From: Propionibacteriaceae bacterium
GTDB taxonomy: Bacteria > Actinomycetota > Actinomycetes > Propionibacteriales > Propionibacteriaceae
Length of the DNA stretch: 64,000 bases
Assembly: GCA_052094425.1 (NCBI GenBank)
Contig: JBQDIN010000007.1
Span: 1,054 to 65,053, forward strand
Direction of reading: 5' to 3'
In this document: piece after piece, positions 21,683 through 41,034 of the stretch
Numbering within the stretch: position 1 is the first letter of the stretch
Layout of the letters: each line of letters opens with the position of its first letter
Notes under the pieces: model-generated
Seen by the model: the letters and a program-made list of their open reading frames with translations, nothing else
Told to the model about the DNA's origin: nothing
The model's database searches: none
Translations under genes and position numbers: made by a program

Positions 21683-21750
21683 ACCCCAACTCTAGAGACA
21701 CCCACTGACACAAATACCCTCAGAATTCACTGTCCACACAAGAATCTTGA

Positions 21751-22072: not shown

Positions 22073-22282
22073 TTGTCGACCTCGTTCGACACCCACTGCA
22101 CCACTGCTGGATTGATGTCGACGAGTCCCGACACCACCCCGAATCTCGCGTCTTCGCCTGCTGCTTGCCATCTGGAAGCGCGCCGAGGAGTCCGGCTGGA
22201 CCCTCAACGGCACCATCTCGCTGTCGGACACCTGGTCCTCAGTTCGGCTCATGCCCAGCAACTTGTCCCGCGAGCGTCGTCC

Positions 22283-24382: not shown

Positions 24383-25284
24383 TTCGATACTCCCGAGCCG
24401 GTCGCGGACGTGGGGTCCATGGCATCCCGCAAGCCATCTGCAATCAGTTGCATGCTCAGGCACAGCAGCACCAGCAGGCCCGCGGGGACCAGAAACAGCC
24501 ACGGCGCGCTGAGCAGGTTGGCCGATCCGTCTCGGATCAGGACCCCGAGTGAGGTGTCCGGCGGGGAAATACCAAAGCCGATGAAGGACAGCCCGGTCTC
24601 TGCTTCCACATTGCCCACCACACCCAACGTCACGTTGATGATCAGAACGGACCCCAAGTTGGGGACGAGATGTTGTCCCACGATCTTCGTCGCCGGCACT
24701 CCCATGAACCGGCTGGCCATCACAAATTCCCGCTCGCGCAGGGACATTGCCATCGAACGATAGACACGTGCCGGAAAGAACCAGTAGAAGAATGTCAGCG
24801 CCAGCGTCAGCCAGATCCAGCCGCTGGCGCTCGATGTCTGGTTGACCACGATCGCCAACAGGAAGAACGTCGGGATGACGATCGCCATGTCCAGCAACCA
24901 GACACCCGATTTCTCGATCTTGCCGCCGAAGTAGGCGATCCCGGTCCCGACGAACGCCGCAATGAGGTTGCCACCGATCGAGGCGATGAAGCCGATCAGC
25001 AACGACTTGCCCAGGCCGTGTGCCGCCAAGACGAACAGGTCACCGCCGGCGGAGTCCGTGCCCAGCCAATGCTCGGCACTCGGCGGCTGCTGCAGGCTCA
25101 GGAAGTCCAACTCAGTGTATTCCCAGGCGCCGATCAGCGGGCCGATAACGGGATAGGCGACCAGCAGGATCATCACCACCACGGCACCGACCGCGAACCG
25201 GTTCCGACAGAACCTTCGGATGAGTATCCGGCGCCTGGATACCCGCTGGAAGGCCAAGGTGCCTAGCTGGTCAGAGGTCGTCAT
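24379..25284 (-). CDS. Oligopeptide ABC transporter permease (OppC-like)
   Basis: HWLGTDSAGGDL, EREFVMASRFMG, HLVPN, EAETGLSFIGFG, DGLRDAMDP. Confidence 0.93.
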   Translation of the reverse strand: MTTSDQLGTLAFQRVSRRRILIRRFCRNRFAVGAVVVMILLVAYPVIGPLIGAWEYTELDFLSLQQPPSAEHWLGTDSAGGDLFVLAAHGLGKSLLIGFIASIGGNLIAAFVGTGIAYFGGKIEKSGVWLLDMAIVIPTFFLLAIVVNQTSSASGWIWLTLALTFFYWFFPARVYRSMAMSLREREFVMASRFMGVPATKIVGQHLVPNLGSVLIINVTLGVVGNVEAETGLSFIGFGISPPDTSLGVLIRDGSANLLSAPWLFLVPAGLLVLLCLSMQLIADGLRDAMDPTSATGSGVSK

Positions 25285-25299
25285 CCCGTCACCACACCT

Positions 25300-26271
25300 T
25301 CATGAAGTCCGGATCCGTGGATCGGCAAAGGCCACGAAAATGTCGGCCAGCCACAAGGCCACGCACGTTGAGGCACCCCCAAGGAATATCAACGCCACGG
25401 CACCGTTGATGTCGTTGTTGCCGATCGTCTCCAGGAAATACCAGCCGGCTCCGTGGATCGAGAAGATCAACTCGATGAAGACGACGCCGGTCACCATCCG
25501 GCTGATGGAGAAGGCGATCCCGTACGAGGTCGGTATGAACGCCGTGCGGAGCGCATGCCGCACGATCGCCTTCCGTCGCGGAAGGCCCCGTGCCCGAGCG
25601 GCACGGACATAGGGGGCATTGATGGTGTCCAACAGGTACAGCCGCTGTGTCAGGTGATAGCCCGCGTACCCAACCAGTGTCAGCGCGAGCGTTGGTAGAA
25701 CCAGATGCCGGACGTACTCGAAGAAACCGTCTCCGGCGTTGCCCAGACCGGTCACGAACAGTCCATCGACGCCGAACTCTTTGTGCAGGTACAAGTAGAC
25801 CAGCACGACAAGCGTCGCCATGACGAACGTGGGCACGACGAACAGCAGCGTGGTAAGGCCATTCGTGAGGATGCGATCCAGAACGCCGTACTTCCTTATG
25901 GCGGTCAGCACGCCGAGGCCGACACCGATGACGATGGCCAGCAAGGTGCCCACGAAGACCAACTGGACGCTGACCTCGGCGCGCTGCCAGATCTCCTCGG
26001 TGACGGGCTCTCCCACCGGGCTGTATCCCCAGTCCCAGTGCAGGGCCACGCTCTTTAGCCAGCGCCAATAGCGGACGAAGATCAACTCTTCGTCGTTCAC
26101 GTTGGCGTAATCGAGAAATTGGTCGATCGAGCTCTTCGGCGGCGGTGGTGTCTGCGCCAGGAAATTCGCCCGCGGCTTCAGGAACGACGACGCCAGAAAG
26201 TATCCAAGGCTTGTCGCGATGAACAGCATCAGCGCGTAATTGACAAGCCTCTTGGCCATCCATGCGAACAC
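25300..26271 (-). CDS. Oligopeptide ABC transporter permease (OppB-like)
   Basis: WDWGYS, HLVLPTLAL, YVRAARARGL, HALRTA, IELIFSIHGAG. Confidence 0.93.
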   Translation of the reverse strand: MFAWMAKRLVNYALMLFIATSLGYFLASSFLKPRANFLAQTPPPPKSSIDQFLDYANVNDEELIFVRYWRWLKSVALHWDWGYSPVGEPVTEEIWQRAEVSVQLVFVGTLLAIVIGVGLGVLTAIRKYGVLDRILTNGLTTLLFVVPTFVMATLVVLVYLYLHKEFGVDGLFVTGLGNAGDGFFEYVRHLVLPTLALTLVGYAGYHLTQRLYLLDTINAPYVRAARARGLPRRKAIVRHALRTAFIPTSYGIAFSISRMVTGVVFIELIFSIHGAGWYFLETIGNNDINGAVALIFLGGASTCVALWLADIFVAFADPRIRTS

Positions 26272-26309
26272 GAATCACCACCTCGTCGTTGTTGGGTCTT
26301 GCCGCACCG

Positions 26310-28040
26310 CTACTTCTGCCAGCCCACATCCGCCCAAGGGACGGACAGGAATCCCGCCGGGCCGTAGTTGGCCAACTTTGCTTTGGTCGCTGCTATGTCC
26401 GGGCCGTTGTAGAAGGGGATAGCTCCACCCAGACCGAGGTAAGCCCGCTCCGCCTTGTTGTAGAGCTTCTTCGCCTCCTCCACATCGGATTCGGTCGTCA
26501 TCTCCGCGACCATCGCATCGATCTCGTCACTCCCCACACCGCTGCTGTTCAACCCCCCGTCGCTGGACAGCAAGGCACTCCCGTACTCGGCGAACGCGAA
26601 GGGCGAGCTACTGAACGTGAATCCGGTGTCGATCATGTCCCACTTCTTCTCGTCCAGCTCGGTGCCGAACTGCGCCTGTGGCTTGTTGACAATCTCCACC
26701 GAGATCCCGATCTCTTCCATCATCTGCTGCATCGCCCGACCGCGCGCGGTAGTGCTGGTCGCATTCCCGAAGTTCATGTAGGTGAACGTGGCCTGGGCGC
26801 CGTCCTTGCTCCTGATCCCGTCTGAGCCGACCGCCCAACCCGCGTCGTCGAGTAGCTTCTTGGCCCGCTCGACGTCGTAGTTCAGGTCCTTCATGTTGTC
26901 TTCGTAACCTTTGACGAACGGGAAGACGACCAGCGAGCCCGGGGGCTCCTCCTCCCAATTCAAACCTTGCGATTCGATCTCGCCCAAGAGCTTCCGATTG
27001 GTGCCATAGATGACGGCGAGGCGCATGTCCTGATCCTGGAAGAACTTCGCATCCTTGTTGAGAGACAGCAAGTCCACATGGGGGTTCGGACCGGTCCGGA
27101 TGGTGACGTCTTCCATCACCTTGATCGTTTCAAGGTCTTCGGGGCCGCCCACGCCCATGGCACCTATCTCACCGTTGGCGAAGGCATTGTTGATCGAACT
27201 GGCGTCCATCACCCGGTAGATCAGTTTGTCCAGCTTGGCCGGCTCGCCCCACCAATTGGGGTTGCGCTTGAAAACGATCTCGGTCTTTGTGAGCGAATCC
27301 ACCGTGAACGGGCCGGCACCCAGCTCGGGATGAAGATCGTTGACCCAGCCGGTCATGTAGAACTCCGGGTCCAGATTCTTCGGGTGTTCCAGCGTCGTGA
27401 AGACACTCTGGTACGGGTAGTACGATTCGGAGAACGTGACGATCACATGCTTCGGATCCTTGCCCTGCTCCACGTTCTTGATGGATGAGTAGCCTGCGGA
27501 ATTGGACGGTGTGTACTTGTCCGAATCGCCACGTTGGGTGGTCCACGTGGCATGAAAGGCGCGCCAAGTGATCGGGTCACCGTTGTTCCAAGTCGCCTTC
27601 TCGTTGATGACATACTCGACGGTCTCCGGATTTTCCTTGACCAGTTTCACCGAGGTCAAGTAGTCGGGATTCGGAGTCGGGTCACCGTCGACGGTGTAGT
27701 TCCACATGTTGAACGCCGGAGTGAACACCCCCAGTAGCACGCTGTTTGCCGCTGTCGAACCGGCGCTGCTCCACCAGTTGAAGTTCGGTCCCGGATTGCT
27801 AATCGACAATGCCAGGGTGCCGCCGTCCTCGATGTTGTCCCGCGGCTGCGGATTATTGTAAGCTTGACCGGGAATGGTCTCGTGCGGAGGCCCATCATAG
27901 GTGGCCGGAACCCCTTCCGGCGGCGCAGTAGTGGTGGACCCGGCGGCCCCGCTCTCTTGATCTCCACCACCTCCACATGCGGAGAACGTCAGGAGTACTG
28001 CCAAGAACCCGACCCCAGCGATACTAATCCGTCGCATCAT
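26310..28040 (-). CDS. Peptide ABC transporter substrate-binding lipoprotein (family 5)
   Basis: Lipobox TFSAC; NNPQPRDNIEDGG, WNNGDPITW, GAGPF, NPNWWG, typical actinobacterial OppA. Confidence 0.93.
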   Translation of the reverse strand: MMRRISIAGVGFLAVLLTFSACGGGGDQESGAAGSTTTAPPEGVPATYDGPPHETIPGQAYNNPQPRDNIEDGGTLALSISNPGPNFNWWSSAGSTAANSVLLGVFTPAFNMWNYTVDGDPTPNPDYLTSVKLVKENPETVEYVINEKATWNNGDPITWRAFHATWTTQRGDSDKYTPSNSAGYSSIKNVEQGKDPKHVIVTFSESYYPYQSVFTTLEHPKNLDPEFYMTGWVNDLHPELGAGPFTVDSLTKTEIVFKRNPNWWGEPAKLDKLIYRVMDASSINNAFANGEIGAMGVGGPEDLETIKVMEDVTIRTGPNPHVDLLSLNKDAKFFQDQDMRLAVIYGTNRKLLGEIESQGLNWEEEPPGSLVVFPFVKGYEDNMKDLNYDVERAKKLLDDAGWAVGSDGIRSKDGAQATFTYMNFGNATSTTARGRAMQQMMEEIGISVEIVNKPQAQFGTELDEKKWDMIDTGFTFSSSPFAFAEYGSALLSSDGGLNSSGVGSDEIDAMVAEMTTESDVEEAKKLYNKAERAYLGLGGAIPFYNGPDIAATKAKLANYGPAGFLSVPWADVGWQK

Positions 28041-28106
28041 CAGTGATACCTCTCATGACGCCGTTGTTGTCAGTATTTGACGCTAGTGGCCGCCAGCTCC
28101 CAGCCG

Positions 28107-28124
28107 CTTGTAGCAGCTGACGAA
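28107..28124. promoter_or_regulatory. 18-bp palindromic operator (island motif copy 1), upstream of the opp operon
   Basis: CTTGT-AGCAGCTG-ACGAA; on the minus strand followed after exactly 21 nt by TAGCGT (28085-28080). Confidence 0.65.
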
Positions 28125-28170
28125 TGTACTTGGCCCTCTTTGTGACATTTCACGGGCCGTGATCCAAGGT

Positions 28171-29613
28171 TCAGTCGAAAGACAGGCAGTTGGTCGATAC
28201 CCGTGGCACCTGCCGGAGCCCGACGAAAATCCGGCACACCGTGCCGTCATCGTCCCGAAGGAACCGCACGCCGGAATCACCGGGTGGATCGGGGGTGACG
28301 AATTCGTCCCGAACCGCAGTGGGCAAGAGGCCCTTGGGATCCCCTCCGCGAACAATAAGCGTCAGGTCGCCGTCACGGATGTCGACGTTGACCCACACGT
28401 TCTCATCGGATCGGTAACTGCCCACGTAGTCGGCCAGGAACTCAGTCGGCAGGCGAAGGCCCTCCGGAGCCGGCAGGACGTGTGACCGGTCGACCGGCCA
28501 GCCATCGGCCAGGTTCAGCCCCGCCAGCCCTATCCGGCGGGCCGGCCCACCCCGCAGATTCACCAAGGTGGCAGTAGCGACGCCCCGGTCGGGCACGAAC
28601 TGCAGGCGGGAGGTGATCGATTTCAGCGCACCGCCGTGCTCTACCAGGACACTCCCGTGGAAGTCCGGCACCAAGGAGAGTCCGCAGCCGTAGTAGGAGT
28701 TGTTCCTGATCCGAATATTCGCTGTCAGCATGGTCCGCACACTCTTCGGGCTCAGCACCCGGCAGCCGATACCGTCGCCATCGGCGAGATACATCCGGGC
28801 GTAGGCCATCAGGTCATCCACACACGACCAGAGGGAACCGGCGCCCGGCATGGCCGGAGACCGCCACCACAGGGGTGAATCGACGATGACGCTGTCGTCG
28901 TCCTTGCCGTCGGTGACGGCGGGCGTGACCACGTTGCCGCCCCGGGACAGTGCATCGATGTCGAACCCGGTTCGGTGCATGCCCAGTGGCTGTAGGATGG
29001 CCCCATCAATGCACTCGGCCAGCGTTGTTCCGGTGACCCGCTCCAAGATGGCGCCCAGCAGTCCATAGCTGTCATTGGAGTAGCTGAACTCGTTTCCCGG
29101 TTCGCCGAGCAAGGTGTACTCCGCGGCGGACAGGAATGCAATCAGATCGTCGTGGGTGTCTAGGTAAGCACCGGTGACAGGTTCAAACGAGTCACCGAGC
29201 GAAACGGGATCGTCCAGCTCATGGGAGCGACGCATCGCGTGCCGCGATCCCGCCAGCGGAGGCATCCCGGTGGTGTGCGACATCAGGTGACGGATGGTCA
29301 CCTTCTTCAGGTGGTCGCCGCCCGGCATTGTGAACTCTGGGAGGTATTTGACGACGGGCTCATCGATGTGCAACAGACCCTTGTCCTGCTGGGCCATCGT
29401 TGCCGCGCAAACGAAGGACTTCGTCACCGACGCGATCCCGAAGATCGTCTGAGTGTCCACCGCGGTGTCGTCGGATCTCGACAACGATCCGGAGCAGTAG
29501 CTTTCGATACTGCCGTCCGGAGCGAGCGCGGCCGTTGCCATGGCCGGACCATGCGACTCCTTGAGCCATGGCTCTGCCAACTCCCGCATCGCGTCGCCAA
29601 ACTGGACGGTCAC
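28171..29613 (-). CDS. Beta-lactamase-family serine hydrolase (D-peptidase/CubicO-like), cytoplasmic; paralog 1
   Basis: SxxK (ASVTK), LMSHTTG, YSN, HGG motifs; C-terminal beta-rich domain; GTG 29613 after AGGAGG; no signal peptide. Confidence 0.9.
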   Translation of the reverse strand: MTVQFGDAMRELAEPWLKESHGPAMATAALAPDGSIESYCSGSLSRSDDTAVDTQTIFGIASVTKSFVCAATMAQQDKGLLHIDEPVVKYLPEFTMPGGDHLKKVTIRHLMSHTTGMPPLAGSRHAMRRSHELDDPVSLGDSFEPVTGAYLDTHDDLIAFLSAAEYTLLGEPGNEFSYSNDSYGLLGAILERVTGTTLAECIDGAILQPLGMHRTGFDIDALSRGGNVVTPAVTDGKDDDSVIVDSPLWWRSPAMPGAGSLWSCVDDLMAYARMYLADGDGIGCRVLSPKSVRTMLTANIRIRNNSYYGCGLSLVPDFHGSVLVEHGGALKSITSRLQFVPDRGVATATLVNLRGGPARRIGLAGLNLADGWPVDRSHVLPAPEGLRLPTEFLADYVGSYRSDENVWVNVDIRDGDLTLIVRGGDPKGLLPTAVRDEFVTPDPPGDSGVRFLRDDDGTVCRIFVGLRQVPRVSTNCLSFD

Positions 29614-29625
29614 GGCGCCTCCTAG

Positions 29626-29647
29626 TGTCCCGGACATGTCCCGGACA
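29626..29647. repeat. Tandem 11-bp palindrome (TGTCCCGGACA)x2
   Basis: TGTCC-C-GGACA repeated head-to-tail just upstream of the serine hydrolase RBS; runs into GACAATTGTC. Confidence 0.7.
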
Positions 29648-29785
29648 ATTGTCTGATTTACCGCCCCTTCAGACGTCAGAATGACGCCTCGGTGTCCGTT
29701 GACACTCGGTCAGCCGACTGTTGTGCAGTTTAAAACCTCGCACCGCGATCGGTCAGTGACGAATTCACCAACACTTCAGTGAGCG

Positions 29786-29803
29786 TCTGTATGGATCTAC
29801 GAA
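29786..29803. promoter_or_regulatory. 18-bp operator (island motif copy 2), between serine hydrolase 1 and PucR 1
   Basis: TCTGT-ATGGATCT-ACGAA. Confidence 0.5.
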
Positions 29804-29948
29804 CGCCGTGCCCGAACAATGTGGTGGCCACTGCAACATGCTCGCACCATCGTCATCGCTCTCTGCGTGGTGGAGCAGAGGGGTCGCATCACTAGTAGTT
29901 GGACTCTGATGAAGTACAGTGCCGGGCACTTGGTCCTAGCGTAGGAAG

Positions 29949-31604
29949 GTGCGGCGTCCGGTGCCCCTGCAATCCTCGGCCACCCTGGGGACCGTGCTCG
30001 ACAACTTGGGCACGACTCTGCTGCAGACGGTTGGCCGTAGCGGCGACCCCACCCGGGCCATTGATGGCGTCTTTATCCACGACAACGTCGATGACGCTGA
30101 GTACCCCAAGAATTCGCTGGTGCTCGGCGTCGGAATGCATGCCGCCCAAGATGTCGCGGCCCTGCTCGACACTCTCGGCGCGCAGCGGGCCTCGGCGTTG
30201 GTGGTGCGCGCCCCGGCCCCGTCGGGCAGGCAAGTCATCGACGCTGCTGCTGCCGCCGACGTGATGCTGTTGGAGCTGACCCGCGGCGCGTCGTGGACCC
30301 GCTTGGTCGAGTTGTTGCGATCAATGCTCCCCGAGGGCGGTCTGGGCCTGACCGACTCGGGGACCCTTGCGGACATGCCATCGGGCGACCTGTTCGCGGT
30401 GGCCAATGCAGTCAGTACTCTGCTGGATGCGCCGATCACCATCGAAGACCGCAGTTCTAGGGTTATCGCCTTCTCTGCGAACCAGAACGACACTGACTCA
30501 TCGCGGAAACAGACGATTCTCGGTCAGCAGGTACCCGATCGATATCACAACGAACTGAGCGAGCGCGGGGTGTTCCAGGCGCTGAACAACTCGGACGATC
30601 CAGTTTACATCGAGCCGCTGACCGCTGGGGATGGTGAGTACGAGATGCCTCGGACCGCCCTGGCCGTGCGCGCCGGAGATGAACTACTCGGCTCACTTTG
30701 GGCGGCCGTCAGTGGTCCCCTTTCTGCGGAACGCCAGCGTGGATTCCAGGACGCGGCCAAGGTCGTCGCACTTCACATTCTGCGGCTGCGGGCCGGCGCC
30801 GATGTCGGCCGACGGCTGCGATCCGACTTGGTCAGTACGGCCTTGGAAGGTGGCACTGAAGCACCGGACGCCATCGGGCGTCTGGACTTGAACGGGCAGA
30901 GCGTGGCGGTGATGAAGTTGGGCTCAGTCGATCCGGGTCCCGACACGGCGATCGGTCGGGGCGCCGCCGAAAGTGCCCACCAACGCGAACGGATCGCTGA
31001 TGCTCTCACCATGCACCTCGACGCGCTGCATCCGCGATGCGCCACTGCGCTGATCGGGGACGCGACGTACGCGATCGTGCCGGTGCAGTCCGACGGCGAC
31101 GACCCCGAGACCCAAGTCAAACGCATTGCCGCCGAGTTCGTGGAACGTACCGGCGACCGGTTCTCCCTCGTGATCGGCGTGGGCACCGTCGCCGACGATG
31201 CGTCCCAGCTTGCCAGTTCCCGCCGGAACGCCGACCGGGTGACCCGGGCCCTGATCGCTGGGGGACGGGGCCAGCGGGTCGCGAGTCTGAGCGACGTGCA
31301 CATGGAGGTGCTCCTGCTGGAACTCCAGGATCGGCTCATCGCCGAGGGCGAGTCATCCACGGGGCCGGTCGAACGGTTGCACGCCTACGACCTGGAGCAC
31401 CGAGCCAACCTGACGGAGTCGCTGCGTGCCTGGTTGGACTGCTTCGGAGACATCCCGGCAGCCGCTGCCAAGCTGTTCATCCACCCCAACACGCTCCGCT
31501 ACCGACTGCAGCGCATCGCCGACATCGGGCCGCTCGACCTGACCGACAACCACGCGCGTTTCGCGGCGATGCTACAGCTCCGCATCATCGTCCGGACCCC
31601 GTGA
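29949..31604 (+). CDS. PucR/CdaR-family transcriptional regulator, paralog 1
   Basis: DAPITIEDRSSRVIAFS (GAF-like), C-terminal HTH_30 LRAWLDCFGDIPAAAAKLFIHPNTLRYRLQRI. Confidence 0.92.
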   Translation: MRRPVPLQSSATLGTVLDNLGTTLLQTVGRSGDPTRAIDGVFIHDNVDDAEYPKNSLVLGVGMHAAQDVAALLDTLGAQRASALVVRAPAPSGRQVIDAAAAADVMLLELTRGASWTRLVELLRSMLPEGGLGLTDSGTLADMPSGDLFAVANAVSTLLDAPITIEDRSSRVIAFSANQNDTDSSRKQTILGQQVPDRYHNELSERGVFQALNNSDDPVYIEPLTAGDGEYEMPRTALAVRAGDELLGSLWAAVSGPLSAERQRGFQDAAKVVALHILRLRAGADVGRRLRSDLVSTALEGGTEAPDAIGRLDLNGQSVAVMKLGSVDPGPDTAIGRGAAESAHQRERIADALTMHLDALHPRCATALIGDATYAIVPVQSDGDDPETQVKRIAAEFVERTGDRFSLVIGVGTVADDASQLASSRRNADRVTRALIAGGRGQRVASLSDVHMEVLLLELQDRLIAEGESSTGPVERLHAYDLEHRANLTESLRAWLDCFGDIPAAAAKLFIHPNTLRYRLQRIADIGPLDLTDNHARFAAMLQLRIIVRTP

Positions 31605-31663
31605 CAGCCGACGCGCCGGTCAGCTAGTGTCGTGTGTCATTAGACGATTGACTCCTTTGTGGG

Positions 31664-32902
31664 TCACGGCGCCACGTCGACGGCTGCGGCGATGTTGATC
31701 ACTCTTGAGCCTGCGGGCACGTCACTGCCGGAAACGGGAGTGCCGGTACTCGCCAGGAGCGCGGTGAGCTCGGACACACTGGGCTCGGCCCCGAACTTCT
31801 CACGCAGTACGGCGTAGGCGCCGGCCACCTGCGGTGCGGCGAAGGATGTTCCGCGGACGAACCACCAGCCGTGGTCCCGGTACGGCAACATGATCTTGTT
31901 ATTGCTGGCAAACGTTCCGTCGCCGACCGGCGCGTAGAGCTGGATCGCGCTCGACCGCTGGGTGTAGTTGGTGAGGGTGTCGGAGGTGACATTCGTGGCG
32001 CCCACCCGCACGATGTTCGAGCCGCAGTTCCAGGTCCCGGTTCCGGTGATGCCGTCGTTGCCGGCCGCCATCACCACGGCAATCCCCTTCTGTGTAAGGC
32101 GTCCAGCCGCCTCGTCGACCTCAAGGCCGGCGCTCGGGCAGGCGGATCCGTCAGGGAGGGGTCCGCCTGAGACCGAGAGGTTGATCGCCGCGATTCTCTC
32201 TCGGTACTCGCTGCGCTCGGCCAGTACGTAGTTGACCCAGTTGAGGGCGTCGACGACCGAGGCGTGAGGCCATCCCAGCTCGGTGCCCGAGCCTCCGCCG
32301 ACCTTGATCTGGTACACCTCGGCGCCCACGGCTGCACCGGCGGCGTGGTGGATCCGCCCGTCGGACTCGTTCCGAGTGCTCGGCTGGCCGACGACCGCGC
32401 CGGCCGAGCCGGTGCCGTGCCCGTTGTGGCAATAGCCACCGTCACTGTCCGTACAGGTGTTGAACGGCGCGTTCCCTGGCTCCGAGGAGCCGGCGGCCGA
32501 GGAGAAGTACATCGGATCCGCCCCGGGCCAGCTCGGCTGGGTCGTCGAGCCGGGGGTGCAGAGCGACGGCCACGGGGTGGCACCGATCTCCTGGCCGATG
32601 CATGCCTCGCCGGCGACCTTCGACTGACCGGTGGAGTCGGTGAACTGGCTGTTGCCAGCGGTGAAGGCACCGTCGATCACGACGACCACCTTGCCATTGC
32701 CGTCGTAGGCCGCACCAGCGGCATCGGTGTAGCGGCCATCCAATGAGCCGCCGAGGTTGTAGGCCGTCGCGGTGGTCGGGTCGCCCTCGACGGCTTGCGC
32801 CGGGCTCACGTTGCCCACCGCCGCCATCAGCATGCCGGCGGTGACTGCAGCAAGCATCTTGATCATGGGCGTCTTGATTCTGGTTGACTGGGTCATGGAC
32901 AT
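31664..32902 (-). CDS. Secreted S8 subtilase without apparent pro-domain
   Basis: Signal peptide ending AQA; Asp (VVVVID), His (HGTGSAG), oxyanion Asn (AAGND), Ser (GTSFAAP); RBS AGGAAGG. Confidence 0.9.
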   Translation of the reverse strand: MSMTQSTRIKTPMIKMLAAVTAGMLMAAVGNVSPAQAVEGDPTTATAYNLGGSLDGRYTDAAGAAYDGNGKVVVVIDGAFTAGNSQFTDSTGQSKVAGEACIGQEIGATPWPSLCTPGSTTQPSWPGADPMYFSSAAGSSEPGNAPFNTCTDSDGGYCHNGHGTGSAGAVVGQPSTRNESDGRIHHAAGAAVGAEVYQIKVGGGSGTELGWPHASVVDALNWVNYVLAERSEYRERIAAINLSVSGGPLPDGSACPSAGLEVDEAAGRLTQKGIAVVMAAGNDGITGTGTWNCGSNIVRVGATNVTSDTLTNYTQRSSAIQLYAPVGDGTFASNNKIMLPYRDHGWWFVRGTSFAAPQVAGAYAVLREKFGAEPSVSELTALLASTGTPVSGSDVPAGSRVINIAAAVDVAP

Positions 32903-33183
32903 CGTCTCGCCTTCCTGTCTCAGGGTGGGATGCGGCGACACGAATCGAGGTGTCACTGCAATCTCGTTTCATGCGTGCGGGCGGGCCCGAGTCGACCAGG
33001 CTGTCGATAGGAATGTGACCGGTGGCGGCTGGGACAAACAGTTGTCGCCGGTTCCACGCCCCCCGCCGGTGAGTGGAATCGAAACCAGCAACTCTGCCCG
33101 ACCATCTCGGCGTTCATGTCTTGAAAGTTAGTAGCGTCGTTGGCGCAGGACTTGTGGCTGTCGGACAGATTCTGGCGCTATAG

Positions 33184-33201
33184 TTCGTCTTCCCGGACGA
33201 A
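33184..33201. promoter_or_regulatory. 18-bp operator (island motif copy 3), between S8 protease and PucR 2
   Basis: TTCGTC-TTCCCG-GACGAA perfect inverted repeat, abutting TATAGT (33179-33184). Confidence 0.7.
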
Positions 33202-33304
33202 CGCCCCCGTGAACGAGGGCGCGAAGCCGAGAGCCCAAATAGCCGGGAGCCAAACCTCTACACCGACCGTTTACGTCATTCTCGAGGTGGTGCCAACATT
33301 GCCA

Positions 33305-34933
33305 ATGAGATCCCGTGCCAGCATGGGCCGCGCACTCGATGACCTCGGTACGACGCTCATCGACGTCGTGCACGGCAGTCCACGTCTAGACGAGGAGATC
33401 AACGGCGTCGTGATCCACGACCCGATCGACGCTCCCGACATCCCAGTGCGGTCGCTCATCTTGGGGGTCGGGCTTCATGACGAGAGAGAGATCGTCCGGA
33501 TAGTCACCCAGTTGGGGTCGGTCAACGCGGCGGGTCTAGTCATCAGGGCGCCGGTATCGGCCGACGCGTCGATTGCGGAGGCATCCGCGGCGGCCGGAGT
33601 GCCCGTTTTGGGGCTGACCCGGGGCGCCTCATGGGTGCAGTTGGCAGCCATGCTGCGCTCTCTCCTGTCAGACGACGACCTCGCGCCCGCTGGCGATGCC
33701 TACCTGGGCGGGATCCCGGCCGGGGACCTGTTCACTCTGGCCAACGCCATCGCCTCGCTGATCGATGCCCCGGTCACCATCGAGGACCGCAACAGTCAGG
33801 TGCTCGCCTTCTCCGGGCAACAGGGCGAGGCAGACTCGTCGAGGATCGAGACGATCTTGGGGCGCCGTGTCCCGGAGGCCTACTCCCGCCTGTTCGCCGA
33901 GCGGGGAGTGTTCCGCGACCTGTTTCGTAGCGACGAGCCGGTCTGGATCGATCCGCTGCCCATCAACGTGGACGAGAAGCCACGTGTTGCGGTTGCAGTT
34001 CGGGCCGGAGACGAGTTGCTGGGGTCGATCTGGGCCGCAGTTCCCGCGCCCCTCAGTGTCGAGCGCACTCAGGCCCTTCGCGAGGCGGCCAAGCTCGCCG
34101 CACTGCACATGTTGCGCGTCCGTGCCGGGGCCGACATCCGGAGGCAACTGAGCACGGATTTGCTGGCCACGGCACTGAAGGGAGGCGCCGAGTCGTCCGC
34201 AGCGTTGCAGCGCATGGGGCTGTCCGACCATTCCGTGGTGGTTCTGGCGCTGACCGGTCTGGAGGCCGCTGACGGCATCGCCTCCGAAGCCAACCTGGCC
34301 GCCGAGCGTGCCCGGCTCACCGACGGCTTCTCCATGCACCTCGGTACGGTGCACCCGCGCTGCGTGGCTGCTCTAGTCGGTGATGTCGTCTACGGGCTGC
34401 TACCCGTGAGCGGTGGTCATGTCAGCGGTGAGGACCGTGGGCTCCGGATCGCCCAGGACTTCCTCGAGCGGATCGGCAGCCGCTATCGGGCAGTGATCGG
34501 GGTCAGCCCGGTGGCCGAGACCGCCGCAGAATTGACGGCCGTGCGGTCCATAGCCGATCAGATCCTGCGAGTACTGCGGTCACGACGTCCAGAGGGATCC
34601 CAGTCCGCCCGGTTCAGCGATGTCAGCGTCGAGGCGCTCGTGCTCGACCTGCACGATCTGGCCGCAGCACGCGGAGATCGATTGACTGGGCCGGTAGCCG
34701 CCCTTGTCGCCTACGACCAGCGTCACAACAGCGATCTGGTTATCACGCTCCGCGCCTGGTTGGAGAGTTTCGGTAATATCCCGCAGGCCGCCGCCAAGTC
34801 ACACGTCCACCCCAACACCTTCCGCTACCGCCTGCGACGCCTCTGCGAGGTCGCCGATCTCGACATCGACGATGCTGATGCCCGGTTCGGTGTGATGCTC
34901 CAGCTCCGCGTGCTTGCCTCCGGCCTCCCTTGA
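33305..34933 (+). CDS. PucR/CdaR-family transcriptional regulator, paralog 2
   Basis: Colinear with paralog 1 (LDDLGTTLIDVV, DAPVTIEDRNSQVLAFS, HPNTFRYRLRRL); start inferred from alignment with paralog 1. Confidence 0.92.
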   Translation: MRSRASMGRALDDLGTTLIDVVHGSPRLDEEINGVVIHDPIDAPDIPVRSLILGVGLHDEREIVRIVTQLGSVNAAGLVIRAPVSADASIAEASAAAGVPVLGLTRGASWVQLAAMLRSLLSDDDLAPAGDAYLGGIPAGDLFTLANAIASLIDAPVTIEDRNSQVLAFSGQQGEADSSRIETILGRRVPEAYSRLFAERGVFRDLFRSDEPVWIDPLPINVDEKPRVAVAVRAGDELLGSIWAAVPAPLSVERTQALREAAKLAALHMLRVRAGADIRRQLSTDLLATALKGGAESSAALQRMGLSDHSVVVLALTGLEAADGIASEANLAAERARLTDGFSMHLGTVHPRCVAALVGDVVYGLLPVSGGHVSGEDRGLRIAQDFLERIGSRYRAVIGVSPVAETAAELTAVRSIADQILRVLRSRRPEGSQSARFSDVSVEALVLDLHDLAAARGDRLTGPVAALVAYDQRHNSDLVITLRAWLESFGNIPQAAAKSHVHPNTFRYRLRRLCEVADLDIDDADARFGVMLQLRVLASGLP

Positions 34934-34957
34934 CACGGACAGGACTCGGCCTCCCGG

Positions 34958-35529
34958 TCAGAGCCACGTGATGACCGCGCCCACGACGTCGTGGGCGTCA
35001 ACCAGATACCCGACCTCGATCGGGACCGGAAGGGCGCCCGGCGGCCTCCCGTCGGCCAGATCTTGTCGAGGCCCGCGACACCAAGCAGGCTGTCGCCGTA
35101 ACACCAGAAGTCAACGGCCAGGTGACTGAGCAGATGCCGGGCAACTCACCGGATCGCCGACGCATCGACCAGCACGCTGGCCATCAGGATTCGGCGGACC
35201 TCGAAATCCCGTAGTTTTGGACCTGCCTCAGGTTGGCTACTGCGATCGCCTGGGAGCCTGCCGCCACATGACCTCCGGCAGCATGGTGATCTTCGCGTGC
35301 GGCGCGTGGAGTACGCCTGCCTCGCGGCAGTACTGTGCCATCAAGGCGGTGTTCCACTCCAGTGCCGACGGTTTAGCGACATCAACGGCAGGGTGAGGTT
35401 ACCGGTCAGGCGTTCCAGCCCAGATCGGACAAGTGCTCGGCGTCCAACGGCCCAACCCGGGTTCCAGTCTCCTGGCTCGACCGGCGCGTTCTCGGACGTT
35501 CGAAGCACTGCGTGCTGTGTCGGCATCAC
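34958..35529 (-). pseudogene. Degraded D-serine deaminase/D-threonine aldolase-like PLP enzyme (alanine-racemase fold), not recoverable as a single ORF
   Basis: Segments in several frames: GNLTLPLMSL / LEWNTALMAQYCREAGVLHAPHAKITMLPEVMWRQ / AIAVANLRQV / FEVRRILMASVLVDASAIR*VA...DFWCYGDS / LPVPIEVG. The PHAK PLP-Lys motif lies within 35282-35308. Truncated after about a third of the fold. Confidence 0.7.
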
Positions 35530-37025
35530 GCAGCCCGGCGCCCCGCCGCGACCGTCCCCGTGATCGGGCGTCCGGGGTTGACGGCAGGATCGAGGACACC
35601 GTCACGTACGACGAACTGTCCATCCACGAGGACATGGGTGATACCCGAGGAGGGGATGGGTTCGTCCAAGCTCGCCCGGTCGCTGATTGTGCCCGGGTCG
35701 AAGGCGATCAGGTCGGCGTCGCAGCCGACCTGCACCCGGGCCTTGGCCCGCAGGGCGGGAACCGCGTCCTGGAGGATCTGGGCCGGGACTAGGGAACAAC
35801 GGCGCAGCGCCTCGGGCAAATCGAGGACCGCGCGATCGCGGACCAGCCAGCGGATGACCTTCGCGAAGGTGCCGAGGCTTCTCGGATGGGCCAACCCGCC
35901 GGGTCGTAGAGGCCACTCGCACGGGTCCGCGGTCCCGTCCTCGCGGACCACCTCCATCGAGTCGCTGGCGAACGCCGTGTCCGGCAGGAGGAACGACCTG
36001 GTCAACAGGTCCACCCCGTAGGGGGTGGACTCGTCTGCCCAGTCGAATACCACCTTCGCCATGGGCTCGTGCCGTCGCAGCTCCCGCAACTGCGCCTCCG
36101 AGGCAACCCGTTGTCCCGTCCGCAGGTGAATGATCGAAGACGGAGTGATGCCCAGACGCGGCAGGTTGACCGGATCGAGGAACGGTGCCGAGATCGAGGT
36201 CGCCGCGCTGCCGTAAGGGTAGGCCTCGGCACTGAGCCGCGCCCCACTGCGGCGAGCCGTGTCTACGGCGCCCGCGATCAGGTCGATCTGCCGGTTGGAA
36301 GTGCTGTGCAGATGGCAGATGTGCATGTGGGCGCCCGTGGCGGCACTCGCGGCGATCACCTCCAGAATTGCCTCCACCGAGGTGTTCGGCTCCCGGTGCG
36401 AGATGAAGCGGGCGTGGGTGAAGGTCGGCACCTGATGGCTGGCGGCCATCCGAGCGAGCTCGAGGTACTCCGCTCGTGCCGTCCCCGGGGCGTAGCCCAG
36501 CAGGATACCGATTCCGATCGCGCCCTCGTGCAGGGTGGTCTCGACGGCGTCCAGCAGCCGGGTGAGGTCGGTGCCGTCCCAAGGCTGCATCCAGTCGGTA
36601 CCCGCTGGGATCACCCCATGGTCGTCGTCGCCGGTCAACCTGGCACGAACCGCTGCCCATCCGGCGGAGAAGCCGAAGTTGATCGGTCGTCCCTGATCAG
36701 CAGCTGCTCGCAGGGCAGCGGGGACGTCCGCCCGGCCCGCCTCGAGGTCCAGTGCCGTCGTCACTCCGTCGAGGGCGTGAAGGCGCTGCCCGGTCAGGCT
36801 CTGGGCGTGGGAGTGCAGGTCGATGAAGCCAGGCGCGAGGACCAGTCCGGAAATGTCCACCACGCTGCGGGCGCGGAGCGGGCCGTCGATCACCGCGGTG
36901 ATACGTCCGTCGCTGACTCCAACCGATCGTGGTGCGTCGAGCCGCGTTTCCGGATCAACGACTCTGCCGCCCACCAACGCCAGATCCGCTTGGCCACGCT
37001 CGGGGTTAGGGCCTGTGAAGGTCAT
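35526..37025 (-). CDS. Metallo-amidohydrolase, D-aminoacylase/D-glutamate deacylase-like
   Basis: LAPGFIDLHSHA, LDGVTTALDLEAG, GILLGYAPG, EAYPYGS, ASDS, AHPRSLGTF, GCDADLIAFDP, GITHVLVDG. Confidence 0.85.
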   Translation of the reverse strand: MTFTGPNPERGQADLALVGGRVVDPETRLDAPRSVGVSDGRITAVIDGPLRARSVVDISGLVLAPGFIDLHSHAQSLTGQRLHALDGVTTALDLEAGRADVPAALRAAADQGRPINFGFSAGWAAVRARLTGDDDHGVIPAGTDWMQPWDGTDLTRLLDAVETTLHEGAIGIGILLGYAPGTARAEYLELARMAASHQVPTFTHARFISHREPNTSVEAILEVIAASAATGAHMHICHLHSTSNRQIDLIAGAVDTARRSGARLSAEAYPYGSAATSISAPFLDPVNLPRLGITPSSIIHLRTGQRVASEAQLRELRRHEPMAKVVFDWADESTPYGVDLLTRSFLLPDTAFASDSMEVVREDGTADPCEWPLRPGGLAHPRSLGTFAKVIRWLVRDRAVLDLPEALRRCSLVPAQILQDAVPALRAKARVQVGCDADLIAFDPGTISDRASLDEPIPSSGITHVLVDGQFVVRDGVLDPAVNPGRPITGTVAAGRRAA

Positions 37026-37120
37026 GTGCCACTCCCTCTCGAAGTATTGCCCACTCGCGCCGACAGGTCCGACACACGCTGGCACGCCGAGCAACACTAG
37101 ACGGGCCGCGCCCGCGGCGG

Positions 37121-37138
37121 TTCGTTCCCAGCGACGAA
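37121..37138. promoter_or_regulatory. 18-bp operator (island motif copy 4), between the D-aminoacylase and serine hydrolase 2
   Basis: TTCGT-TCCCAGCG-ACGAA; on the minus strand followed after exactly 21 nt by TAGTGT (37099-37094). Confidence 0.7.
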
Positions 37139-37258
37139 TTCCCGGACTGTTTTCTGATCGCCGGTGCAACCCAGACGCAGCGCTCCACCAGTAGTCTCGT
37201 CGCCATATCGGCGCGGGCATCCCGGGCCCGATCGTCATCACCCCACGACGGAGGCACT

Positions 37259-38695
37259 GTGACCCGCTGTTTCACCGACTCTCTGACCGCGTTCGCCGCA
37301 CCTGTGCTGGACAAGGCGAGGGACCCTTCGGCGGCCGTCGGCGTGATCGGCCGCGACGGCACGGCACACACCCACGCCTGGGGATCGGTGTCGAGGACGA
37401 CCAGTGATCCGATCACCAGTGCAACGGTCTTCGGTATCGCCTCCATCACCAAGTCTTTTGGTTCCGCAGTCGCGATGACCCTCCAGGATCGTGGCCTGCT
37501 GGACATCGACGAACCGATCAGTGCCCACCTACCCGAGTTACGCATGCCCGATCCGGCCCATCTGGCCAAGGTGACCACGCGCCACTTGATGAGCCACACC
37601 TCTGGGCTGCCTCCATTGCGCGGACTCCGTGCGGCCATGTACCGATCGCACCAGCGCGAGGACCCGGCAGCCCTGGCACAATACGAGTCCGGCCCCGGAG
37701 ACGACTGCCTGGACACCCACGAGGACCTCATCCGTTTCCTGTCCCAGCAGGACTACGCGCCGTTGGGCGAGCCTGGGACCGAGTTCAGCTACTCCAACGA
37801 CGGTTACGGACTGCTCGGAGCGATCATCGAGCGTGTCAGCGGGGAGCCGATGGCCGACTACCTGACTCGTTCGATCCTGGAACCACTGGGGATGACCAGG
37901 ACCGGATTCGACGTCACCGCCCTGATCAAGCAAGGGAACGTCGTCACCCCGGCGGTCCTCGATGACGAGACCGACGACGCGCAGATCGCCGACTCGCCGT
38001 TGTGGTGGGAAGCCCCGGCGATGGCCGCAGCCGGCTACCTGCGGTCCTGTGTCGACGACCTGCTGACCTACATCCGGATGTTCCTCGGCGAGGGCGAGGT
38101 CGCCGGGACCAAGGTGCTCAGCCCCGAAGCAGTGCGGACAATGACCACACCGGTGGTCCAGGTCAGCCAGACTTCCTTCTACGGTTGCGGTTTGACCATC
38201 GTGCCGGACTACCACGGGGTACGAATGGTCGAACACGGTGGCTCGCTGAAGTCGATCACCTCGCGCCTGCAGTTCGTGCCAGACGTGGGCGTGGGCACGA
38301 TCACCTTGATCAACCTCCGAGGGGCTCCGGCTCGCCGTATCGGGTTGGCTGCACTAAATCTCGCCGACGGGCACGCGGCAGAGCGCTCCCACGTGGCACC
38401 CCGGCCCGGCGGCCTGGCCCTGCCTGAGGGGGCACTGAGCGAGTACGAGGGCGTTTACGAGTCAGCTGAGGATGTCCAACTGACGATCACCGCGTCCGGG
38501 GACAGCCTGGAAATGGTGTCCCGGATCGGCAAACCTTCCACACTGCTTCCGACCGCTTGGCGTGACGAATTCGTGGTCGACGACGCTGTCGGGGACACCA
38601 ACGTCCGCTTCCTTCGCGACAGCTCTGGTTTGGTGGTCCGGGTGCTGGCGGGGCTCCGTCAGCTCGGCCGGGTTCGCGGCCCGGAACCGGAGTGA
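37259..38695 (+). CDS. Beta-lactamase-family serine hydrolase, cytoplasmic; paralog 2
   Basis: ASITK, LMSHTSG, YSNDGY, HGGSLKSITSRLQFVPD; colinear with 28171..29613; RBS GGAGG. Confidence 0.9.
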   Translation: MTRCFTDSLTAFAAPVLDKARDPSAAVGVIGRDGTAHTHAWGSVSRTTSDPITSATVFGIASITKSFGSAVAMTLQDRGLLDIDEPISAHLPELRMPDPAHLAKVTTRHLMSHTSGLPPLRGLRAAMYRSHQREDPAALAQYESGPGDDCLDTHEDLIRFLSQQDYAPLGEPGTEFSYSNDGYGLLGAIIERVSGEPMADYLTRSILEPLGMTRTGFDVTALIKQGNVVTPAVLDDETDDAQIADSPLWWEAPAMAAAGYLRSCVDDLLTYIRMFLGEGEVAGTKVLSPEAVRTMTTPVVQVSQTSFYGCGLTIVPDYHGVRMVEHGGSLKSITSRLQFVPDVGVGTITLINLRGAPARRIGLAALNLADGHAAERSHVAPRPGGLALPEGALSEYEGVYESAEDVQLTITASGDSLEMVSRIGKPSTLLPTAWRDEFVVDDAVGDTNVRFLRDSSGLVVRVLAGLRQLGRVRGPEPE

Positions 38696-38748
38696 CCTGA
38701 CCAGGGGACTTGACCGGCGGCGCTCCAGCACCCCTCGGATGAACGCCA

Positions 38749-39522: not shown

Positions 39523-41034
39523 TCACTTGAGGCGGCCGGCGAGGCGGCCGTGCCAGGCCTGGCTGGGCTCGTTCAGGCCGACGAACTCGACCTCCTTGCC
39601 CCGCTCGGTGTACTTGAGTTCGATGGCGTCCAGGGCGGCGACGGTCGAGGAGTCGTAGATCTGCGACTGGGACAGGTCGATGATCACGTGCTGTGGGTCC
39701 CCGTTGTAGTCGAACTGGTAGACGAGGTCGTTGCTGGAGGCGAAGAAGAGGGCGCCACGGATCGCGTACTTCCGGGTGTCCGGGTCGGGCTGTTCCACAT
39801 CGATGACCTCGGTGAAGTGGGCGATCCGCCGGACGAAGAAGAGGGCGGCGACCACCACCCCGAGCACGACGCCGATGGCGAGGTTGTGGGTGACCACCGT
39901 CGCCACGACAGTGACCACCATGATCGCCGTTGCGCTCAGCGGCATCCGCCGCAGGGTCCGGGGATGCACGCTGTGCCAGTCGAAGGTGCCCACCGAGACC
40001 ATGATCATCACCGCTACCAAGGCGGCCATCGGGATGATCGCGACCAGGTCACCGAGCACCACGACCAGGACCAGCAGGAAGGAGCCGGCCAAGAAGGTGG
40101 AGATCCGGGTGCGCGCCCCGGACACCTTGACGTTGATCATCGTCTGGCCGATCATCGCGCAGCCCCCCATGCCGCCGAAGAACCCGGTGACGATGTTGGC
40201 CACCCCCTGCCCCCAGGCCTCCCTGGTCTTGGAGCTGTGGGTGTCGGTGATGTCGTCGACCAGCTTCGCGGTCATCAGCGACTCCAACAGCCCGACCAGC
40301 GCCATCGCGAACGCGTACGGGGCGATGATCCGCAGCGTCTCGAACTCGAAGGACACCTGCGGCAGGAAGAGGGTCGGGAGGCTGTCCGGCAGCTCCCCCT
40401 CGTCACCCACGGTGGGCACCTTCACCCCGGCCAGGACGGCGAACAAGGTGAGCGCGAGGATGGCGACCAGCGGAGCCGGCACCGCCTTGGTGAGCTTGGG
40501 CAGGAACACCATCACGAGGAGGCCGACCGCGATCATCGGGTACACCGCCCACGGCACGTCGATCACATGGGGCAGTTGGGCGGTGAAGATCAGGATCGCG
40601 AGGGCGTTGACGAAGCCGACCATCACGCTCCGGGGCACGAACCGCATCAGTTTGGCGACTCCGAGCAGGCTGAGCACGATCTGCAGTACGCCGGCCAAGA
40701 TCACGGTGGCGATGAAGTAGTCCATCCCGTGTTCGCGCACCAGCGGGGCGATCACCAGCGCGACGGCACCGGTGGCGGCGGAGATCATCGCCGGACGGCC
40801 ACCGACGATGGCGATCGTGACCGCCATGGTGAAGGAGGCGAAGAGCCCCACCCGCGGGTCCACCCCGGCGATGATGGAGAAGGAGATGGCCTCCGGGATG
40901 AGGGCCAACGCGACCACGAGGCCGGCGAGTACCTCGGTCTTCAACCGGCGCGGGGAGCGCAAGGCCGTACGTACCGACCACGCCTGCGTGTCGCGGACGT
41001 CGCGATTGGAGTGCGCGGGGCTGGGTGCGGGCAT
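39523..41034 (-). CDS. SulP-family inorganic anion transporter with STAS domain
   Basis: EVLAGLVVALALIPEAISF, GRPAMISAATGA, GGMGGCAMIGQT, GALFFAS, YDSSTVAALD. Confidence 0.95.
   Translation of the reverse strand: MPAPSPAHSNRDVRDTQAWSVRTALRSPRRLKTEVLAGLVVALALIPEAISFSIIAGVDPRVGLFASFTMAVTIAIVGGRPAMISAATGAVALVIAPLVREHGMDYFIATVILAGVLQIVLSLLGVAKLMRFVPRSVMVGFVNALAILIFTAQLPHVIDVPWAVYPMIAVGLLVMVFLPKLTKAVPAPLVAILALTLFAVLAGVKVPTVGDEGELPDSLPTLFLPQVSFEFETLRIIAPYAFAMALVGLLESLMTAKLVDDITDTHSSKTREAWGQGVANIVTGFFGGMGGCAMIGQTMINVKVSGARTRISTFLAGSFLLVLVVVLGDLVAIIPMAALVAVMIMVSVGTFDWHSVHPRTLRRMPLSATAIMVVTVVATVVTHNLAIGVVLGVVVAALFFVRRIAHFTEVIDVEQPDPDTRKYAIRGALFFASSNDLVYQFDYNGDPQHVIIDLSQSQIYDSSTVAALDAIELKYTERGKEVEFVGLNEPSQAWHGRLAGRLK

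Follow-up and report, generated by a model that had tools for sequence, protein, structure and literature searches.

Which DNA element, and which protein, control the peptide-related genes that cluster in the middle of a 64,000-nucleotide stretch of a Propionibacteriaceae genome (GenBank assembly GCA_052094425.1, contig JBQDIN010000007.1, positions 1,054 to 65,053 of the forward strand; hereafter the window)? The cluster, which we call the island, contains an opp-type peptide ATP-binding cassette (ABC) transporter operon, two hydrolases of the beta-lactamase fold (A and B), a peptidase of the S8 subtilase family, an amidohydrolase of the N-acyl-D-amino-acid deacylase type (the D-aminoacylase below) and two PucR-family regulators, PucR1 and PucR2. 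A preliminary description of this DNA had pointed to an 18-bp motif, YYYGT-N8-ACGAA, in four intergenic regions of the island and had assigned it to the two PucR paralogues from proximity. Our analysis favours the explanation that this motif is the dyad operator of one clade of PucR proteins, from which the bound protein would activate transcription in a class II-like manner at a fixed distance from the promoter. To this explanation as a whole we give a probability of roughly 0.7.

A conserved dyad beside PucR genes

The four 18-mers (sites 1 to 4, Table 1) have the positions and sequences originally given, and each is intergenic once over-long open reading frames (ORFs) are corrected. Across the 64 kb, YYYGT-N8-ACGAA has nine strand-matches, equal to six loci, against 0.57 expected, and none of 100 shuffles reached nine. 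Varying the spacer is a cleaner control than shuffling, as it preserves the real half-site frequencies (66 ACGAA, 47 TTCGT). The N8 spacing gave six loci, any other spacing from 0 to 24 gave 0-3, and the perfect TTCGT-Nk-ACGAA occurred three times at k=8 and at no other k. The two loci beyond the four sites had been overlooked earlier and lie in coding sequence. One is a perfect dyad within the gene for the solute-binding protein (SBP) of the opp operon, with no promoter-like hexamer at an offset of 21 or 53; with ~0.05 perfect dyads expected per window, chance is not a comfortable explanation for it. The other, at the 3' end of a SulP gene just beyond the island, is probably due to chance, and promoter geometry was looked for there and not found.

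PucR2 has thousands of homologues, none above 63% identity, and those at 53-63% are spread across the Actinomycetota. We collected 80 genome loci, each with one PucR homologue (53-62% identity) and 10-kb flanks, 1.58 Mb in total; the single homologue of each locus is 47-56% identical to PucR1 and 53-62% to PucR2. Within these loci the perfect dyad occurs 23 times, compared with at most four times at any other spacing, and 39 of the 75 relaxed dyad matches fall within 500 bp before the PucR homologue gene. About half of the loci share a common upstream architecture, which extends over at least 15 genera from eight or so families, among them Amycolatopsis, Kribbella, Catellatospora, Umezawaea, Nocardioides, Streptomyces, Jiangella, Actinoallomurus, Plantactinospora, Prauserella and Nakamurella, together with several lineages of metagenome-assembled genomes (MAGs).

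These foreign sites were anchored solely on ACGA[AC] and the hexamer that follows, leaving the left half unselected. In this unselected half, G4 and T5 are present in 36 of 36 unique foreign sites and T2 in 31 of 36, while the eight spacer positions vary freely. Conserved half-sites around a free spacer, as read from this alignment, are the signature expected of a dimeric protein-binding site, and the same pattern joins the window to homologue loci from at least 15 genera, as a shared operator would. A matrix built from the 36 foreign sites alone was then applied to the window. The full matrix placed site 3 (20.4 bits) and site 4 (19.3 bits) as the top two of the 64 kb, the next position scoring 14.3. 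With a half-site-only matrix, which avoids penalising the AT-richer island spacers, the four sites ranked 1-4 of ~8,400 intergenic positions, the first two at 20.3 and 18.3, site 1 at 18.1 and site 2 at 13.3; the next intergenic position scored 11.7. The half-site pair of site 1, TTCGT...ACAAG, recurs in two homologue loci (L049 and L056). We therefore take sites 3 and 4 to be secure and site 1 to be good. Site 2 exists as first described, and it is marginal as a site, its case resting mainly on the fourth-best intergenic rank; a chance origin of this site alone is a serious possibility, if the lesser one. Both the concentration of matches before PucR homologue genes and the choice of the four window copies by a foreign matrix bear out the assignment to PucR, and we regard the dyad as very probably a functional operator of this clade.

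A lone half-site, GGTGAATTCGTC on the minus strand, lies at 29759-29763 and resembles gTGAaTTCGTC, the left edge of the Amycolatopsis sites; a right half to match it was not found. In a close strain described below (X2), its ACGAA is preserved while positions 29764, 29766 and 29767 differ.

Promoter geometry and strain variation

The preliminary description had also drawn attention to an exact distance of 21 nt between dyad and a TAGCGT or TAGTGT hexamer before the opp operon and the D-aminoacylase, and had read it as the position of an activator. For opp this hexamer predicts a transcription start at ~28073 and a 33-nt leader with a GAGAGG Shine-Dalgarno sequence before the ATG; the ATG of the D-aminoacylase is preceded by GAGGGAG. 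The homologue loci provide an independent anchor for the -10 element, namely TANNNT 6-7 nt before an in-frame GTG or ATG at the protein N-terminus. This arrangement is the standard mark of a leaderless transcript in actinobacteria and was present in 54 of 81 homologue loci (L001-L081). The best dyad within offsets 10-35 of the leaderless hexamer lay at exactly 21 in 45 of the 54; 41 of these 45 sites score at least 11, and 32 of the 41 carry a second site at offset 52/53. The same offset recurs at foreign target promoters (L048, beta-lactamase-fold hydrolase, TAGCGT; L071, TAGCCT; L001, dipeptidyl peptidase IV (DPP-IV), TACAGT), so that the geometry first noticed in the window holds well outside it.

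Downstream of intergenic sites of at least 13 bits, TANNNT hexamers accumulate at only four offsets, namely 1, 21, 32 and 52. These pair up as 1/32 and 21/52, since two tandem sites separated by 31 bp face the same two hexamers. We had considered the TAGGCT found 1 nt after homologue sites as the -10, which would place an auto-repressor between -35 and -10; the offset histogram and the leaderless-start test led us to reject it, and on the same two grounds the hexamer at offset 21 was taken as the -10. Measured from the predicted -10 hexamers and leaderless start codons, the canonical dyad would occupy about -51 to -34 (centre ~-42.5), with an optional second site at about -73.5.

A consensus scan of 27900-37400 returned no sigma-70-type promoter with a -35 element at any predicted promoter. 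The lone match, at 33305-33278 (minus strand), is at shuffle level (1 found, 1.1 expected), and the -35 positions read AGCGGC at opp and AACCGC at the D-aminoacylase. The missing -35 is consistent with activator-dependent promoters.

Sites 2, 3 and 4 are each followed, after exactly 53 nt, by a further hexamer, before hydrolase A, on the S8 side and before hydrolase B, respectively. Three exact gaps that match the distal position of the homologues are unlikely to be coincidental, and site 4 probably serves both divergent promoters, those of the D-aminoacylase and of hydrolase B. These three promoters nevertheless remain tentative because a convincing proximal partner site is missing. As such partners, TTGGT was not accepted for hydrolase A, being a half-match only, nor was TCTGT-N9-ACAAG for S8, which has the wrong spacing. 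On the S8 side, the TAACTT hexamer is followed after 7 nt by the ATG of a 57-codon ORF (32944-33117, minus strand), whose TGA overlaps the S8 start codon, GTG 32956, as GTGA. The third-position guanine-cytosine (GC) content of this ORF is ~0.67 by eye, below that of real genes; a leaderless upstream reading frame with coupling to S8 is one possibility.

A second palindrome, CTAGGC-N12-GCCTAG (up to AACTAGGC...GCCTAGTT), directly follows the proximal dyad at L008:9949-9976 and stands at the same place in ~30 further homologue loci. The leaderless -10 (TAGCTT or TAGTTT) lies within its right arm. The window sites lack this palindrome, which could be the operator of another factor or a structural element of the promoter.

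Variation in close strains could be followed in a food-metagenome run (X2, a strain ~95% identical to the window) and in the sole RNA run with related sequence (X4, contigs of a strain 90-95% identical, without 5' ends). The opp intergenic region of X2 has seven differences, none in the half-sites of site 1; two fall in its N8 spacer (28117 and 28118), and the -10 reads TAACGT (28083, an N position) with the T, the A and the final T preserved. Site 4 has no substitution in X2 or X4, the 12 X2 differences listed for the region between D-aminoacylase and hydrolase B all lying outside it. Of the two hexamers there, TAGTGT is identical in X2 and TAGTCT has become TAGCCT (37195), which preserves the TANNNT form. 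Site 2 is unchanged in X2 over the covered part (29786-29799), as is TAAACT, although its neighbours at 29717/18 and 29735/36 differ.

The two regulators and how the dyad may act

PucR1 and PucR2 are 47% identical and retain the invariant columns of the clade alignment. Both stay below the equivalog cutoffs of NCBIfam: with the AdeR model they score 125 and 120 bits (cutoff 700), with the CdaR model 41 and 33 (cutoff 612). Since these AdeR and CdaR/SdaR cutoffs are not reached, the clade is distinct and uncharacterised. The only relative in the PDB is the helix-turn-helix (HTH) of MabR (E = 5e-4). In PucR1, at residues ~500-512, the near-invariant recognition-helix motif HPNTFRYRLRRL reads HPNTLRYRLQRI, with three substitutions relative to the family consensus (F to L, R to Q, L to I). 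The half-sites preferred by PucR1 may therefore be variant ones of the kind seen in sites 1 and 2.

A TATAGT abutting site 3 on its upstream side had been taken to suggest autoregulation of PucR2. The abutment is there as described; the suggestion does not follow from it, as the homologue -10 lies 21 nt downstream of the dyad and the abutting arrangement has no counterpart in any homologue promoter examined. Site 3 ends 103 nt before the PucR2 ATG, which lacks a leaderless TANNNT signature, and no TANNNT stands at offset 21 on either side of the site. PucR1 does have a leaderless-type signature, of the same form as the CCTAGCTT-CGGGAG-GTG of the homologues, and upstream of it no good dyad was found at offset 21 (best 18-mers at most 11 bits). 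Autoregulation thus appears well supported for the clade from its promoter sequences and is unproven for the PucR genes of the window.

We propose that nTnGT-N8-ACGAA (ideally TTCGT-N8-ACGAA) is the operator of one PucR clade, of which the island holds two diverged copies. The protein, as a dimer or in a higher oligomeric state, would contact both 5-bp half-sites from one side of the helix. In the case of opp and the D-aminoacylase, its site would lie at about -51 to -34, over the missing -35, and the bound regulator would recruit RNA polymerase as a class II-type activator. The signal would probably be a ligand that comes from peptides and to which the N-terminal PucR and GGDEF-like domains respond; under its control PucR1 and/or PucR2 would activate opp and the genes for the D-aminoacylase and the hydrolases. 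Hydrolase B would be governed from site 4 as well, hydrolase A from site 2 and S8 from site 3, in each case from about -74.5, three helical turns further upstream and matching the second-site position of the homologues. So assembled, the regulon would serve to import and break down unusual peptides, probably ones with D-amino acids or of cell-wall origin. Activation is the less firm part of this proposal; judged from promoter sequence, it is the likelier sense of regulation, at clearly lower confidence than the identity of the operator.

Several observations weigh against this proposal. The full-matrix score of site 2 is 10.8 bits, which ~25 window positions equal or better. In site 1 the degenerate half (ACAAG) is the one that faces the promoter, where homologue proximal sites keep ACGAA. 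The conserved self-promoter is intact at neither PucR1 nor PucR2, and PucR1 may read a sequence different from the clade dyad. At the offset-53 promoters of the window, with sites at about -74.5, no recognisable proximal partner dyad was found. The strain variation is consistent with constraint and is weak when taken alone (combined chance ~0.04 by estimate). Finally, a repressor could make equal use of a position over the -35 region.

The last point leads to the strongest alternative, in which the element and its binder are the same and the bound protein represses, blocking RNA polymerase at -35 until the ligand releases it. That the dyad covers the -35 position is in keeping with this, as is the overlap of copy 3 with TATAGT, which would fit occlusion of a PucR2 promoter. 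However, the predicted promoters have no recognisable -35, which is typical of activator dependence, and the second sites near -73.5 on the same helical face favour activation or cooperative binding over simple occlusion. Characterised members of the family except PucR itself are, moreover, reported as activators (PMC13599513). We consider repression unlikely.

Alternatively, a different, unlinked factor, for example a global nitrogen or peptide regulator, might bind the dyad and include the PucR genes in its regulon. The conserved CTAGGC-N12-GCCTAG palindrome of the homologue promoters illustrates that other inputs are possible, but the dyad tracks PucR's own promoter, as well as the adjacent genes, through at least 15 genera belonging to about eight families, and the island has no regulator gene besides PucR1 and PucR2. 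We also know of no actinobacterial operator, such as those of LexA, GlnR, Crp/GlxR, DasR or Rex, that the dyad matches, and we find an unlinked binder distinctly improbable. Still less probable is that the motif reflects chance, base composition or the functionless leftover of a duplicated promoter, a view largely refuted for sites 1, 3 and 4: TTCGTC and GACGAA are common codon pairs, two further matches lie inside genes, site 2 scores within the background range, and both the hydrolases and the PucR genes are paralogues, but the spacer control, the shuffles and the foreign-matrix ranking all oppose it, the exact 21-nt geometry is common to unrelated genomes, and the regions upstream of hydrolases A and B do not align. 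The sites therefore do not stem from the duplication of a single segment, and we rejected the idea that the two hydrolase promoters are duplicates.

Table 1. Dyad sites, promoter elements and genes of the island (window coordinates).
Feature	Position	Strand	Sequence	Remarks
Site 1	28107..28124	-	TTCGT-CAGCTGCT-ACAAG (read toward opp)	Predicted opp activator site, centre ~-42.5; region 28041-28170, opp SBP start to hydrolase A end
Site 2	29786..29803		TCTGT-ATGGATCT-ACGAA	Weak candidate; region 29614/29638-29948, hydrolase A to PucR1, divergent
Site 3	33184..33201		TTCGT-CTTCCCGG-ACGAA	Perfect dyad; region 32957-33304, S8 peptidase to PucR2
Site 4	37121..37138		TTCGT-TCCCAGCG-ACGAA	Perfect dyad; region 37026-37258, amidohydrolase to hydrolase B
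Extra dyad in SBP gene	26901..26918		TTCGT-N8-ACGAA	Encodes FVKGYE; 1.1 kb from gene start
Extra dyad in SulP gene	39568..39585		CTCGT-N8-ACGAA	Within 3' end of gene
opp -10 (predicted)	28080..28085	-	TAGCGT	Exactly 21 nt from site 1
Amidohydrolase -10 (predicted)	37094..37099	-	TAGTGT	Exactly 21 nt from site 4; start ~37087
Hydrolase A -10 (tentative)	29727..29732	-	TAAACT	53 nt after site 2
S8-side -10 (tentative)	33125..33130	-	TAACTT	53 nt after site 3
Hydrolase B -10 (tentative)	37192..37197	+	TAGTCT	53 nt after site 4
PucR1 leaderless-type signature	29937..29951	+	TAGCGT (CCTAGCGT)	6 nt, then GTG 29949
TATAGT abutting site 3	33179..33184	+	TATAGT	Overlaps first T of site 3
opp-type ABC transporter operon	22283..28040	-		Predicted target
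Fused double ATPase of opp	22283-24502	-		
SBP lipoprotein gene of opp	26310-28040	-		Start ATG 28040
Hydrolase A	28171..29613 (29637 with longer ORF)	-		Beta-lactamase fold + DUF3471, S12 / Pab87-like; possible target
PucR1	29949..31604	+		GGDEF-like domain + PucR C-terminal HTH; PF13556 1.7e-20, PF17853
S8 subtilase-family peptidase	31664..32956	-		Possible target
PucR2	33305..34933	+		PucR-family regulator; PF13556 1.7e-19
Amidohydrolase, N-acyl-D-amino-acid deacylase type	35526..37025	-		Start ATG 37025; predicted target
Hydrolase B	37259..38695	+		Beta-lactamase fold + DUF3471; start GTG 37259; predicted target

The island, its proposed regulon and related systems

The gene map was built from Pfam and NCBIfam searches and from codon-position GC. 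The same searches place permease genes in the opp operon. Hydrolases A and B are 55% identical, and the closest solved structure to hydrolase B is the Pab87 peptidase (2qmi, 1e-37). Hydrolase A probably starts at GTG 29613 rather than ATG 29637, since a GGAGG Shine-Dalgarno sequence lies 4 nt upstream of the former and the alignment with hydrolase B agrees, its N-terminus VTVQFGD paralleling VTRCFTD of hydrolase B. The D-aminoacylase reaches 554 bits with NCBIfam PRK09061 (cutoff 340), and its closest solved structure is an N-acyl-D-glutamate deacylase (3gip, 3e-25). The listed start of PucR2 (TTG 33140) is over-extended; the true start is ATG 33305, as the alignment of the paralogues begins there.

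Third-codon-position GC is 0.76-0.84 over 19631-39180, compared with mostly 0.85-0.95 in the flanks. The block is bordered by an intact DUF222/HNH gene (20366-21682, minus strand) and by a degraded copy (38749-39180, plus strand) that is 58% identical to it over 124 amino acids, which fits a horizontally acquired island. The ~590 bp at 34934-35525, from the end of PucR2 to the end of the D-aminoacylase gene, hold no convincing gene, and an X4 contig has 35 other bases in place of 34978-35523, an indel between strains. In X2, a contig joins 31716 to 35095 and thereby skips the S8 peptidase, site 3 and PucR2; close strains thus appear to differ in whether they carry this S8-PucR2 module.

The homologue loci offer a view of the genes that accompany the regulator elsewhere. 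The genes that stand ahead of the regulator in Kribbella flavida encode an opp-type ABC transporter, an S9/beta-lactamase fusion, an M20 peptidase, an unknown product and an MR_MLE enzyme. A four-gene module of S9 peptidase/beta-lactamase fusion, M20 peptidase, ~310-residue unknown protein and MR_MLE enolase-superfamily enzyme lies ~1-7 kb upstream of the PucR homologue in 48-57 of the 81 loci; the window does not have it. Further dyads of the foreign loci stand before genes for S9/beta-lactamase fusions (L036, L056, L063), for beta-lactamase-fold hydrolases of the stand-alone kind (L048, L054), for oppB-like permeases (L066, L001) and for a DPP-IV peptidase (L001). Directly upstream of the fusion gene the dyad is not enriched, with 8 of 54 loci scoring at least 13 compared with 13 of 258 control windows; this gene is mostly internal to a longer operon and has an upstream site in the three loci just named for it alone. 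In place of the module, the window carries functional analogues, namely the Pab87-like hydrolases, the D-aminoacylase-like enzyme, the S8 peptidase and a different opp operon. Its hydrolases are 26-32% identical to the beta-lactamase-fold hydrolases of the homologue loci, for the most part the corresponding domain of the fusion gene. The common theme, to judge by these gene contents, is the uptake and hydrolysis of unusual peptides, plausibly with D-amino acids in them, and the enzyme families may further point to cell-wall peptides.

This gene content has precedents. The E. coli mpaA-ycjG/mppA and Bacillus subtilis ykfABCD clusters serve the catabolism of murein peptides and D-peptides with similar sets of genes, and to our knowledge neither is controlled by a PucR protein. 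The homologue loci, which resemble these clusters and that of archaeal Pab87 in gene content, combine an opp-type transporter, a Pab87-like S12 peptidase of the beta-lactamase fold, an M20 peptidase and an MR_MLE enzyme, to which the window adds the N-acyl-D-amino-acid deacylase-like enzyme. The promoter arrangement, in turn, is reminiscent of class II (-41.5) promoters of the CRP/FNR type. The dyad would likewise be centred ~42 bp upstream of the predicted start, over the missing -35, with additional sites about three helical turns upstream. In contrast to those systems, the protein family is unrelated and the position is derived from predicted -10 elements and leaderless start codons.

Within the PucR family, most published members are activators that bind inverted repeats (PMC7652997, PMC13599513). 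A close parallel is GabR of Corynebacterium glutamicum, a PucR-type activator of gabTDP that binds two inverted repeats between -87 and -23; its gene adjoins those it controls, it was seen to be positively autoregulated, and an alternative start without a leader has been discussed (PMC7652997). Like GabR, the regulators studied here are actinobacterial PucR-family proteins, and the tandem sites at about -42.5 and -73.5 span the same region. They differ in that the GabR repeat is 21 bp long with another sequence, that GabR has no GGDEF-like domain and that its ligand pathway concerns gamma-aminobutyric acid, not peptides; the island proteins are remote relatives only, and the NCBIfam search gave no GabR family hit. 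The Bacillus subtilis activators PutR/PrcR and AdeR, both PucR-type, bind spaced inverted-repeat operators of 17 bp and 24 bp, respectively, each upstream of a single catabolic promoter (PMC7652997, PMC13599513). The island regulators are partially similar to Bacillus subtilis AdeR (NCBIfam 1e-34 to 3e-36), far below cutoff. The 5-N8-5 dyad differs from the TTGTGG-N5-CCACAA of PutR, as quoted by the preliminary description, and PutR and AdeR are Firmicutes proteins. Bacillus subtilis PucR, after which the family is named, controls several operons and its own gene and either activates or represses (PMC13599513), and its box was reported to be non-palindromic (PMC7652997). Unlike the regulon considered here, that of Bacillus subtilis PucR is devoted to purine degradation.

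Literature searches found no description of this PucR clade or of its regulon. A broader picture, which we offer tentatively and hold to be less likely than its negation, is that the dyad marks an undescribed regulon present throughout the Actinomycetota, in which a leaderless and positively autoregulated PucR-type protein would govern the import and degradation of D-amino-acid-containing or cell-wall-derived peptides. Its components would comprise the opp transporter, S9/beta-lactamase-fold peptidase, M20 peptidase, enolase-type epimerase and N-acyl-D-amino-acid deacylase, and the island would be a horizontally acquired variant whose two paralogues, diverged and with recognition helices that differ slightly, share or partition one set of operators.

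Taken for what it is, the result is an operator prediction for a known regulator family in a clade whose regulator is uncharacterised, useful rather than surprising. PucR-family regulators are common and few have defined operators. What is gained is a precise 5-N8-5 dyad with dozens of natural variants, a 21-nt geometry and conserved targets for a clade in at least 15 actinobacterial genera, by which the regulator, its ligand, the Pab87-like S12 peptidases and the deacylase-like amidohydrolase become directly testable. If two paralogues do share or partition these operators, the island would offer a natural setting in which to study DNA recognition by PucR proteins. The finding points to a dedicated, inducible route for the use of unusual peptides in actinobacteria of soil and food fermentation.

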